A stretch of 64,000 bases of DNA. It comes from Candidatus Multivoradales bacterium. GTDB lineage: Bacteria > Acidobacteriota > Thermoanaerobaculia > Multivoradales > JAHEKO01. Of this stretch, positions 3,096 to 5,551 are shown piece by piece. The translations under genes were made by a program, and so were the position numbers. The notes below the pieces were generated by a model, which was not told the DNA's origin, made no database searches, and saw only the letters and a list, made by a program, of their open reading frames with translations. Each line of letters opens with the position of its first letter. Position 1 is the stretch's first letter. The stretch lies in NCBI GenBank assembly GCA_965223855.1, contig CBDCXM010000009.1:1-64000 (forward strand), written 5' to 3'.

Positions 3096-3746
3096 TTACA
3101 AGAGATAGAGGCTGGGGAAGAGGAAGATCCACACCAGATCGACGAAGTGCCAGTAGAGACCTGCGACTTCGACCCGGTTCGTGAAGCGCTCCGGCTCGGT
3201 CTTCCACATCTTCGCTCCCGGCCCCCAGAGGTAGCCGTTGACGATCAGGCCGCCGATGACGTGCAGGGCATGAAGGCCCGTCATCGTGAAGTAGATCGCC
3301 ATGAAGTTGCCCGAGGACGGGAAGATGTCGTGCGAGAACTTCGAGCTGTACTCAATCGCCTTGATGACCATGAAACCGAGCGCACACAGGTTCGTCAGGC
3401 CCATCCACAGCTTGAACTTGCCGAAGTCCTTCAGCTTGAGCGCGACCCACGAGAGCACCATGGTCACACTGGAGAAGATCAGCACCAGCGTATTGAGGAA
3501 CGCCAGAGGCACGTTGAGCTGGTCGGACCAGATCATCGAGCCGTGATCGCCCCCGTGGCCGAGGTGTTCCGCCACTGCGTGCGGAATGGTCATGAAGTTC
3601 GGATCGCCGGTCCGCAGCAGGACGTAGGAGGAGAAGAGAGCTCCGAAGAGCATCACCTCCGAGGCGAGGAACAGCCAAACCCCGAGCTTGGCGTTGTAGA
3701 GGCCGGTGTCGGGCCTTGCCTTGACGTTGTACGGAATCTCGACCAT
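3096..3746 (-). CDS. ctaE: Heme-copper oxidase subunit III (short form)
   Basis: [35 protein letters not shown] overlap with subunit I. Confidence 0.92.
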   Translation of the reverse strand: MVEIPYNVKARPDTGLYNAKLGVWLFLASEVMLFGALFSSYVLLRTGDPNFMTIPHAVAEHLGHGGDHGSMIWSDQLNVPLAFLNTLVLIFSSVTMVLSWVALKLKDFGKFKLWMGLTNLCALGFMVIKAIEYSSKFSHDIFPSSGNFMAIYFTMTGLHALHVIGGLIVNGYLWGPGAKMWKTEPERFTNRVEVAGLYWHFVDLVWIFLFPSLYLL

Positions 3747-5551
3747 CAGCTTTCCTCGCTCCCGCGGTCGGCCTGGTCGCCGGTGTCCGCCGGCACGTTG
3801 GCGTGTTGCGGCATGAACCCTCTCGGCTGCTCGGGCGGGCTGTACTCGTAAGGTCCGCGGTAGACGGCCGGCACCTCGGTGAAGTTGCCGTGCGCGACCG
3901 GCGGCGACGGCGCGGCCGCCCACTCGAGGGTGGTCGCCTGCCACGGATTGTCGCCGCACTCCTTACCCTTCCTGATACTCCAGAAGAGGTTGAGGATGAA
4001 CGGAATCTGGGCAATCGCGAGCCCGAAGGCCGCCATCGACATGAACTGGTTCCAGTGGAGAACCGGCTGCGCATGGGCGTACTGGGTGCCGCCGTCGTAG
4101 AGACGCCGTGACACGCCGGCGAGCCCCTGGATGAACATCGGCATGAAGATGCAGTTCATGAGAATCAGCGACGGCCAGAAGTGGAGCTTGCCCAACAGCT
4201 CGCTCATCCGCTTGCCGGTGATCTTCGGGAACCAGTAGTAGATGCCGGCGAACATGGCGAAGATGGTGCCGGGCGCCACCACGTAGTGGAAGTGGCCGAT
4301 CACGTAGTAGGTGTCATGAAGGTGAATGTCGGTCGCCGAGAAGCCGAGCGGCAGCCCGGTGAGACCGCCGATACCGAACATCGGCAGGAAAGCGAGCGCG
4401 AACAGCATCGGCGTGTTGAAGCGGATCGAGCCGCCCCACAGCGAGATGAAGAGCGCCGAGAGGATGATCACCGACGGGATCGAGATGATCATCGTCGTCG
4501 TCTGGAAGAAGGCGGAGATCGTCGTCCCCATGCCGGTCAGGAACATGTGATGGGCCCAGACGATGAACGACATGAAGCCGAGGAAGATCGCCGCGTAGAC
4601 CATCGACTTGTAGCCCCACAGCGGCTTGCGGGTGTTGTTGGCGAGCACTTCGGCGACGATGCCCATCGCCGGCAGGATCAGGACGTAGACCTCTGGATGG
4701 GCCAGGAACCAGAAGAGGTGCTGCCACAGGAGCGGACTGCCGCCGCCGGCACCCTGAACGACCTCCCCGGAGACGACCAGGCCACTCGGCATGAAGAAGC
4801 TGGTGTCGAAGACGCGGTCCATGAGCTGGAAGAAGCCGGCCGCTTCGAGCGGCGGGAAGGCCAGCAGCAGGAGGAAGGAGGTGACGAGCTGTGCCCAGAC
4901 GAAGAACGGCAGACGCATCCAGGTGAGCCCCTCGGCCCGAAGCTGGAAGATCGTGACGATGAAGTTGACCGAGCCGAGCAGCGACGAGGTGATGAGGAAC
5001 ACCATCCCCATGAGCCACCAGGTCTGCCCGGTGGTCGCCGTGACCGACAGGGGCGGATAGGAGGTCCATCCCGAGTTCGCGGCTCCTCCCGGCACGAAGA
5101 AGCTGGCGAACATGATCACTCCGCCGGCGAAGTAGATCCAGTAGCTCATCATGTTGAGCTTCGGGAACGCCATGTCGGGAGCGCCGATCTGGAGCGGCAC
5201 CAGGTAGTTGCCGAAGGCACCGACCGCGAGCGGCACGATCGCCAGGAACACCATGATCGTTCCGTGCATCGCACCGAGCTGGTTGTAGAACTCGGGCAGC
5301 ATGATGCCGCCGGGAGCGTTGGCGTCGCCCAGCAGACCGCCGACGATTGGAATCGGCTGCCCCGGATAGGCGAGCTGCCAGCGCATCATCAGCATCAGAA
5401 AGAAGCCGAAGAGGAGGAAGCACAGCGCGGTGAATCCGTACTGGATCCCGATGACCTTGTGATCCTGCGAGAAGACGTACTTCGTCAGGAAGCTCTCCTC
5501 GTGGTGCCCGTGGTCGTGCGCTTCTTCCGGGTGTGTCTCGAGAACGCTCAT
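3746..5551 (-). CDS. ctaD: Cytochrome c oxidase subunit I, A1-like (LAHPEVY), K-channel Lys replaced
   Basis: MHGT, PDMAFP, HPEVY, WAHH, HDTY, HFH; His-rich N-terminus. Confidence 0.95.
   Translation of the reverse strand: MSVLETHPEEAHDHGHHEESFLTKYVFSQDHKVIGIQYGFTALCFLLFGFFLMLMMRWQLAYPGQPIPIVGGLLGDANAPGGIMLPEFYNQLGAMHGTIMVFLAIVPLAVGAFGNYLVPLQIGAPDMAFPKLNMMSYWIYFAGGVIMFASFFVPGGAANSGWTSYPPLSVTATTGQTWWLMGMVFLITSSLLGSVNFIVTIFQLRAEGLTWMRLPFFVWAQLVTSFLLLLAFPPLEAAGFFQLMDRVFDTSFFMPSGLVVSGEVVQGAGGGSPLLWQHLFWFLAHPEVYVLILPAMGIVAEVLANNTRKPLWGYKSMVYAAIFLGFMSFIVWAHHMFLTGMGTTISAFFQTTTMIISIPSVIILSALFISLWGGSIRFNTPMLFALAFLPMFGIGGLTGLPLGFSATDIHLHDTYYVIGHFHYVVAPGTIFAMFAGIYYWFPKITGKRMSELLGKLHFWPSLILMNCIFMPMFIQGLAGVSRRLYDGGTQYAHAQPVLHWNQFMSMAAFGLAIAQIPFILNLFWSIRKGKECGDNPWQATTLEWAAAPSPPVAHGNFTEVPAVYRGPYEYSPPEQPRGFMPQHANVPADTGDQADRGSEES

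Follow-up and report, generated by a model that had tools for sequence, protein, structure and literature searches.

In the model aa3-type cytochrome c oxidases the lysine of the K-channel is treated as indispensable; how, then, might protons reach the binuclear centre of a haem-copper oxidase of the same family from which this residue is missing? The question is raised by a 64,000 nt stretch of DNA from Candidatus Multivoradales bacterium (Acidobacteriota; assembly GCA_965223855.1, contig CBDCXM010000009.1, positions 1–64,000; hereafter the window), where ctaD encodes subunit I of an A1-type oxidase with isoleucine at the lysine position (coordinates in Table 1). A whole lineage shares this loss; it is present in about a quarter of the sampled genomes of the phylum and has members in Verrucomicrobiota, Planctomycetota, and Marinimicrobia as well, groups that are abundant in soils and in the ocean. 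We propose, with a probability of about one half, that the operon encodes a working aa3-type O2 reductase with CuA, whose K-pathway has been remodelled at the interface of subunits I and II, the carboxylate of a glutamate in the second transmembrane helix (TM2) of subunit II, Glu78(II), replacing the lysine amine.

An earlier note on this DNA had described the ctaD product as having intact metal-ligating histidines, HPEVY tyrosine and glutamate, and D-channel motif, with the K-channel lysine replaced by isoleucine and the helix VI serine also replaced (GIVAE); all of these descriptions were borne out. HMMER alignment with chain A of the Paracoccus denitrificans (Pd) enzyme (PDB 1AR1) is gapless over helix VIII (tmiisipsviilsalf paired with tmtiavptgikvfswi) and places Ile363 at Lys354(Pd), Ser360 at Thr351(Pd), and, in helix VI, Ala300 at Ser291(Pd). 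The six haem and CuB histidines (His96, His285, His334, His335, His420, and His422) are present, as are the Mg-site pair His412/Asp413, the D-channel motif (GN...PDMAFPKLN), and the D-channel residues equivalent to Asn113(Pd), Asp124(Pd), Asn131(Pd), Ser193(Pd), and Asn199(Pd). Residue 320, 14 residues before the His-His pair and next to a tyrosine at 319, is an alanine (Ser, Ala, or Gly in the lysine-less clade described below).

The same features recur in the 51 sequences of the lysine-less clade to which the protein belongs. His285, Glu287, Tyr289, His334, His335, and His422 are invariant, His420 is found in 50 sequences and His96 in 49 (the remaining two being gaps), and the D-channel residues listed above are each retained in 44–48 (Asp126 as 44 Asp plus two Glu, Asn115 in 46, Asn133 in 46, and Asn196 in 48). 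The Lys354(Pd) column, in contrast, holds Ile (38), Leu (10), or Val (3) and never Lys, and the four commonest residues at Ser291(Pd) are Ala (34), Gly (5), Ser (4), and Thr (4), compared with Ser in 97 of 98 sequences of a lysine-containing comparison group (hereafter the K group). The second oxidase of the window, an A2-type enzyme proposed in the earlier note as an internal control, serves as one, since it keeps both GVISE and PSAIKV. As judged from its sequence, ctaD thus encodes an A1-type enzyme in which the O2-reducing site and the D-channel are intact, and the K-channel lysine and helix VI serine are gone.

A private mutation, a sequencing error, or a decaying paralogue could also account for such a loss, but nothing was found in favour of this. 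The database holds an identical 601-residue protein (P0002), and lysine is absent at the Ile363 position from all 121 proteins of the first search, comprising 119/119 database relatives (75–89% identity) and two copies of the window protein. It is likewise absent from all 51 clade sequences, which span at least six phyla, so that no close homologue examined retains it; metal ligands are conserved throughout. An even sample of 201 genomes from the window's phylum yielded 47 with a match at ≥60% identity (two of the 47 are unpublished; with all three unpublished genomes set aside the count is 45 of 198). Together, the first-search relatives, the clade alignment, and the genome sample refute a private mutation or sequencing error, and we assign the whole of this account a practically negligible probability.

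In a FastTree phylogeny of 180 sequences, a single group of 52 rows, with support of 100, unites the 51 clade sequences with a further lysine-less database representative (P0129, 49% identical). The sister of this group (support 86) is a pair of lysine-less representatives, and the next branch out (support 93) consists of 24 A1 enzymes from Acidobacteriota and Bacteroidota, 23 of which have the lysine. The tree was rooted at its midpoint, with no B-family outgroup, and therefore does not show whether the lysine-less state is ancestral or derived. A scan of 80 loci, one genome per species, draws a similar line: all loci at ≥58% identity lack the lysine, and all at ≤51% have it with one exception (L070, see below). 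The clade loci come from Verrucomicrobiota (18), Acidobacteriota (13), Fidelibacterota/Marinimicrobia (4), Planctomycetota (4), and other phyla. More widely, among 150 representatives of 50%-identity clusters together with the two oxidases of the window, the Lys354(Pd) column is mixed (Lys 80, Ile 20, Leu 11, Gln 11, Val 4, gaps 16, and others 10), implying several A-family lineages without the lysine. On these alignments, the clade is a monophyletic, multi-phylum A1 lineage.

We searched for a compensating residue among the subunit I columns conserved at ≥85% in the clade (51 sequences) and at ≤15% in the K group (98 sequences). The scan returned only Gln242, Asn306, Thr307, Thr339, Gln350, Ser357, and Ser370; Lys, Arg, His, Asp, and Glu are all absent from this set, and a relocated lysine within subunit I, which the earlier note had named as a finding that would overturn its reading, is therefore rejected. 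What distinguishes helix VIII instead is a set of hydroxyls. The Ala348(Pd) position (Ser357) is serine in 51/51 clade sequences and Ala or Gly in 98/98 K-group sequences; the Phe356(Pd) position (residue 365) is Thr or Ser in 51/51 and Phe in 91/98; and a serine at Thr351(Pd) is kept in 49/51. In addition, Met341(Pd) is replaced by Gln in 47/51. All of the changes that mark the clade on this helix thus bring in polar side chains that carry no charge.

A buried acidic residue is found instead in the partner subunit. Alignment of the window's subunit II with human COX2 (5Z62_B) equates Glu71(II) with human Glu62, which we take to be Glu78 of P. denitrificans, the channel-entry glutamate, and equates Glu78(II), seven residues further along TM2 (STYSEIGVAVIEAVLL), with human Pro69. 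Among the 41 clade loci with a subunit II gene, the Glu78(II) column contains 40 Glu and one Asp, whereas the 34 lysine-containing relatives have Pro (16), Thr (17), or Val (1); an acidic residue of any kind in the TM2 core occurs in 1/34 of the latter, and there at the helix edge. The entry Glu71(II) is kept in 35/41 clade loci, and in the A2 oxidase of the window TM2 of subunit II shows Glu and Pro as in canonical enzymes. In the aligned sequences, then, the losses at Lys354(Pd) and Ser291(Pd) are paired with a buried TM2 glutamate and new helix VIII hydroxyls (Ser357 and Thr/Ser365), with no exception in the loci examined.

Two further groups lacking the lysine bear on this pairing. The sister lineage (P0168/P0137 type) was sampled by a metagenome scan with P0168, giving 80 loci (L085–L164), none of which has lysine at the Lys354(Pd) column (the six commonest residues are Met 55, Ile 7, Leu 6, Thr 5, Val 3, and Ser 2). 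It resembles the clade in having Ala at Ser291(Pd) (69/80), Ser at Ala348(Pd) (79/80), and a buried TM2 acid, here an Asp in 66/66 subunit II sequences of ≥200 residues, and it has a Glu one residue before the Lys354(Pd) position (PIAEM) in 56/80 loci. Unlike the clade, its Thr351(Pd) position is hydrophobic, Phe356(Pd) is kept, the gene order is the canonical C-D, and the CuA motif is mostly CAEICG; by its sequences, this channel region has been remodelled here a second time and in another way. L070, from a Candidatus Acidoferrum metagenome-assembled genome (MAG), is nested among lysine-containing acidobacterial A1 oxidases and has Leu at Lys354(Pd) and Ala at Thr351(Pd); its subunit II has no entry Glu, although TM2 does carry a Glu one turn further in. 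The lysine seems to have been lost independently in L070, with a similar compensation. On present alignments, the absence of the lysine goes with a TM2 carboxylate at all loci examined, and this link rests on few independent events.

To place the two subunits relative to each other, a complex of subunit I (residues 20–565, with two haems) and subunit II (residues 1–250) was predicted from 31-row alignments. The ipSAE was 0.89 in each of three runs and 0.00 in the best of three controls (0.89 is reached by 116/157 solved complexes and 2/215 mismatched pairs); the runs agree in ≥96% of contacts, with a partner pLDDT (predicted local distance difference test) of ≥85. Homologous subunit I–II complexes have already been solved, and the score therefore shows likeness to them only. 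In the predicted complex, the interface comprises TM2 residues 70–71, 74–75, 78–79, 81–82, and 85–87 and helix VIII residues 350–351, 354, 357–358, 361–362, 365–366, and 368–369. Since TM2 and helix VIII run antiparallel, Glu78(II) would lie at the depth of residues 361–366, flanking Ile363 and including the clade-specific Ser365.

These observations suggest a route in which the protons of the reductive half-reaction would still enter at the subunit I–II interface, via Glu71(II), and would be relayed by way of Glu78(II) and the hydroxyls of Ser365, Ser360, and Ser357 on helix VIII onward to Tyr289 and the haem a3 region. Conduction by this chain of residues is inferred from the alignments. The pumped protons and the remaining chemical protons would take the normal D-channel, and electrons would come from a cytochrome c or a cupredoxin, the window's subunit II having no fused cytochrome c domain. 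Genes for haem A synthesis, ctaA and ctaB, lie within the window. A broader form of the proposal, on which we would set the odds slightly below even, is that throughout the clade and its sister lineage a TM2 carboxylate of subunit II replaces the helix VIII lysine amine as the mid-membrane proton relay, the pathway having changed both sign and owner. If so, the pathway would need a protonatable group at mid-membrane depth and not a cationic one, which would bear on models in which the lysine charge gates reduction of the binuclear centre. The strictness with which lysine loss is paired with a carboxylate in the partner subunit makes this a hypothesis on the reductive-phase proton route and the charge of its relay that can be tested by mutagenesis.

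Several points weigh against a relay through Glu78(II). Ile363 itself is absent from the modelled interface list, and the apposition of Glu78(II) with residues 361–366 is deduced from helix periodicity and antiparallel packing, the two not being printed as a pair; the model output is an interface list, with no carboxylate–hydroxyl distances or water paths. The entry residue Glu71(II) is missing in 5/41 clade loci. The buried glutamate could be structural, or could bind a lipid or an ion. Co-variation inside one clade amounts to a single evolutionary event, with at most the sister lineage and L070 as independent replicates, and the sister Asp sits about one residue off the Glu78(II) column in a gapped stretch, so that its homology with the Glu78(II) site is uncertain. 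Finally, no biochemical study of any clade member, and no mention of a subunit II TM2 carboxylate, was found in the full-text literature searched, in which subscription journals were thinly covered.

The main rival explanation holds that the K-pathway has simply been lost and that all protons pass through the D-channel, with Glu78(II) serving an unrelated role, such as packing on the additional small subunit or lipid or ion binding. The full conservation of the D-channel agrees with this, as do the hydrophobic residues at the lower K-pathway positions of the window enzyme (Ile363, Ala300, and Ala366), and a precedent may exist in the lysine-less A-type oxidases of acidophilic iron oxidizers, which keep the D-channel and, in the available part of a preprint, possibly lack a working K-channel (bioRxiv 10.1101/2020.03.01.968255). 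What loss of the pathway leaves unexplained is the strict link between the absent lysine and a TM2 carboxylate (41/41 in the clade and 66/66 in the sister lineage against 1/34 in lysine-containing relatives), and equally the hydroxyls added on the side of helix VIII that faces subunit II. Moreover, in the model enzymes, mutations of the K362M type stall the reduction of the binuclear centre and thereby abolish nearly all activity. Exclusive use of the D-channel, one of the options raised in the earlier note, is thus possible, although we consider it the less likely; a specific alternative involving the buried subunit II glutamate, which co-varies with the loss, fits better.

The earlier note had also allowed for a different chemistry, namely reduction of NO or peroxide in place of O2. 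Only the non-canonical channel and the Gln in place of the CuA/Mg-site Glu point that way, whereas the cross-link Tyr289, the three CuB histidines, Glu287, and the ligands of CuA are all retained, as they are in O2 reductases. The new NO reductase families are defined, in the available portions of PMC11214002, by loss of the cross-link tyrosine or by altered metal ligands, neither of which is seen here, and with the tyrosine and all three CuB histidines kept the sequence falls outside the NO reductases (cNOR, qNOR, eNOR, sNOR, gNOR, and others). Because these marks of an O2 reductase are retained, the NO/peroxide reading is unsupported and we judge it very improbable; of the note's broader suggestion of a different proton route or chemistry, the part that stands is the lysine-less A1 enzyme, for which a route via the TM2 glutamate is plausible.

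A third possibility comes from the literature, as does a limit on novelty. K-channel residues have been tabulated across bacterial COX1 and COX2 proteins by Degli Esposti et al. (2021; PMC8239418), in the available portions of which the canonical K-channel is described as lost several times. Their supplement assigns the lysine-less A1 COX1 proteins of Elusimicrobia, Candidatus Calescamantes, and Methylacidiphilaceae (pattern Y A/S I S C E) to a cbb3-like "KC channel", in which protons would pass via those residues of subunit I helices VI and VII that are equivalent to the C-family channel. Compared by tabulated residues only, the window enzyme resembles this group in its A1 type, a hydrophobic residue at Lys354(Pd), Ser at Thr351(Pd), and Ala, Ser, or Gly at Ser291(Pd). 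Its pattern Y-A-I-S-A-E equals the Elusimicrobia rows at five of six positions, the fifth being Ala here and Cys there (and Cys, as in those rows, in several clade members), and all 31 rows of a clade alignment have Ser328. The same table, however, gives Ser at the KC positions for many lysine-containing enzymes, so that the KC residues do not discriminate, and in the column scan neither helix VI nor helix VII had gained a protonatable side chain; a KC-type route therefore seems improbable to us.

The earlier note's implication that the missing lysine is itself a new feature does not survive comparison with that table, which already includes lysine-less A-family oxidases. It lists no Acidobacteriota, Planctomycetota, or Marinimicrobia members in the A1 KC group, and for COX2 it scores only the entry residue Glu78(Pd), the buried TM2 carboxylate not being recorded; no record of such a carboxylate was seen in the available portions of the article or of the preprint cited above. 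From its sequence, the window gene adds an acidobacterial member to a lineage that had been catalogued before, and the cross-subunit compensation seems not to be in print yet. The lysine-less enzymes of acidophilic iron oxidizers (e.g. the aa3 oxidase of the Acidithiobacillus rus operon), as given in the table and in the available part of the preprint, have Ile, Leu, Val, Met, or Phe at Lys354(Pd) and keep the D-channel. Their class is A2 or early-branching, Val, Ile, Trp, or Thr stands in place of the entry Glu of subunit II (as against 35 Glu of 41 in the clade), and none was among the nearest relatives of the window ctaD protein.

The best PDB matches of the enzyme are the canonical A1 aa3 oxidases of P. 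denitrificans (1AR1/1QLE) and R. sphaeroides (1M56), with E 3e-120. It shares with them the haem and CuB ligands, HPEVY, the D-channel, the Mg-site His–Asp pair, and a two-helix CuA subunit II with its entry Glu. It differs from them in subunit I at Lys354(Pd) (Ile), Ser291(Pd) (Ala), Phe356(Pd) (Ser/Thr), Ala348(Pd) (Ser), and Met341(Pd) (Gln), in the TM2 Pro-to-Glu and CxExC-to-CxQxC changes of subunit II, in gene order (D-E-F-x-C and not C-D-E), in profile scores, and in a 12-residue insertion. The insertion (...PSGLVVSGEVVQG...) lies in the periplasmic loop before helix VI (residues about 255–270) and is absent from both the P. denitrificans and R. sphaeroides enzymes; residues 255–262 and 264 are listed on the modelled interface with subunit II.

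The CuA ligands of subunit II are present (His178, Cys216, Cys220, His224, and Met227). The earlier note had also singled out the CAQLC sequence of this site (CAQLCGLGHYRM), with Gln218 in place of Glu; CxQxC does prove to be a clade-wide trait (40/41 loci), although it is not specific to lysine-less enzymes, since Gln also occurs in 4/34 lysine-containing relatives and Glu in most of the sister lineage, and it was dropped as a marker. The replaced glutamate is normally a ligand of Mg, and the Mg site may therefore be altered. The same Gln is found in the B-family ba3 oxidase of Thermus thermophilus (1EHK), which has a lysine-less analogue of the K-pathway that starts at a subunit II glutamate. 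The match to 1EHK covers the cupredoxin domain of subunit II alone, and ba3 lacks both the D-channel and the helix VI Glu and has a single-helix subunit II, whereas the window enzyme has the D-channel, Glu287, and two transmembrane helices; its sequence thus lies outside the B family.

Both principal subunits score below the NCBIfam equivalog cut-offs: ctaD gives 592.7 bits with TIGR02891 (CtaD_CoxA; cut-off 670.75) and ctaC 139.1 bits with TIGR02866 (CoxB; cut-off 147.7), while the second oxidase of the window passes both (686.9 and 189.8 bits). Several MAG records among the first-search matches name clade members "cbb3-type cytochrome c oxidase subunit I". The low CtaD_CoxA scores probably explain such generic or misleading names, and with scores and labels of this kind the role of the clade in aerobic respiration is easily misread.

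The ctaD gene is preceded by a Shine–Dalgarno-like GGAGG and heads a minus-strand operon with the order ctaD, ctaE, ctaF, a gene for a small CxxC protein, ctaC, and a DUF420 gene; a divergent plus-strand TPR/GDSL gene lies upstream of the operon. The ATG of ctaE overlaps the ctaD stop codon, ctaC is located downstream of ctaD and not upstream, and a GTG at 1427 is the probable start of the DUF420 gene. The order D-E-F-(small protein)-C is found in most clade loci, compared with C-D-E in relatives. The product of the small gene, which has no family match in Pfam or NCBIfam, has a signal-like N-terminus ending in ...AAAC. Most clade loci have a similar open reading frame (ORF) separating ctaF from ctaC; a strict pattern finds such ORFs in 28/39 clade loci and 2/34 K-group loci, and misses the window's own copy and those of L008, L010, L012, and L053, in which the ORF is evident by eye. 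The small protein could serve the lysine-less clade specifically, either as an additional subunit or as a helper in copper handling.

Table 1. Positions of the oxidase genes, key codons, and other features in the window
Feature	Position	Strand	Basis or description
ctaD, A1-type haem-copper oxidase subunit I, 601 aa, lysine-less clade	5551..3746	minus	Pfam COX1, 457.5 bits
Periplasmic-loop insertion before helix VI	4700–4800	minus	Comparison with P. denitrificans and R. sphaeroides
HPEVY: CuB His285, A1-type Glu287, cross-link Tyr289	4685..4699	minus	Sequence
Ala300 codon, helix VI Ser position (Ser291(Pd)), within GIVAE	4652..4654	minus	HMMER alignment
WAHHM	4544–4558	minus	
Helix VIII stretch with clade-specific hydroxyls Ser357 (Ala348(Pd)), Ser360 (Thr351(Pd)), and Ser365 (Phe356(Pd))	4457..4483	minus	Clade comparison
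IPSVIIL	4460–4480	minus	
Ile363 codon, K-channel Lys position (Lys354(Pd))	4463..4465	minus	Gapless HMMER alignment, codon checked
ctaE, short subunit III, 216 aa	3096..3746	minus	Pfam COX3, 59.8 bits
ctaF, subunit IV (COX4_pro/caa3_sub_IV)	2768..3076	minus	Profile match
Small membrane protein, about 84 aa	2317..2571	minus	Signal-like N-terminus, CPVCFG, one transmembrane helix, Arg-rich tail
ctaC, subunit II, 284 aa, two transmembrane helices and CuA cupredoxin domain	1462..2316	minus	Pfam COX2
Glu71(II) codon, channel-entry Glu	2104–2106	minus	HMMER alignment
Glu78(II) codon, buried TM2 carboxylate, canonical Pro position	2083..2085	minus	Clade counts, HMMER alignment
CuA motif, Gln218 where canonical A-type enzymes have Glu (CAQLC)	1657..1671	minus	Sequence
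DUF420 (CtaM-like) protein	1008..1427	minus	Pfam DUF420, 145.5 bits
ctaB	15563–16453		Haem A synthesis
ctaA	16450–17394		Haem A synthesis
Multihaem cytochrome c, 973 aa	18530–21451	minus	Cytochrom_C, FixO-like, and c554/c7-like domains
Alternative complex III operon	43051 to about 50795	plus	ActB (molybdopterin-like/4Fe-4S), NrfD-like ActC, ActD, cytochrome c subunit
A2-type caa3 oxidase: subunit II fused to cytochrome c, subunit I, subunit III	51620..54947	plus	Downstream of alternative complex III and SCO1
Subunit I of the A2-type oxidase	52618–54267	plus	YSHPAVY
K-channel Lys codon of the A2-type oxidase	53602–53604		PSAIKV
ORF with M36 metallopeptidase	5706–10130	plus	PA and PepSY/FTP propeptide domains
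Reprolysin-like metallopeptidase fragment	1–873	minus	At window edge

Elsewhere in the window, the operon for alternative complex III, followed by SCO1 and then by the A2 caa3 oxidase with its canonical K-channel, makes up a textbook alternative complex III–caa3 superoperon (43051–54947, plus strand). A third haem-copper oxidase of the same genome is encoded on another contig. The 973-residue multihaem cytochrome c, whose gene lies near ctaA and ctaB, may carry electrons to one of the oxidases. The oxidase operon is flanked on either side by metallopeptidase genes, with the reprolysin-like fragment on one side and, on the other, a large secreted M36 fungalysin-type enzyme within a long ORF, the true start of which is probably well inside.

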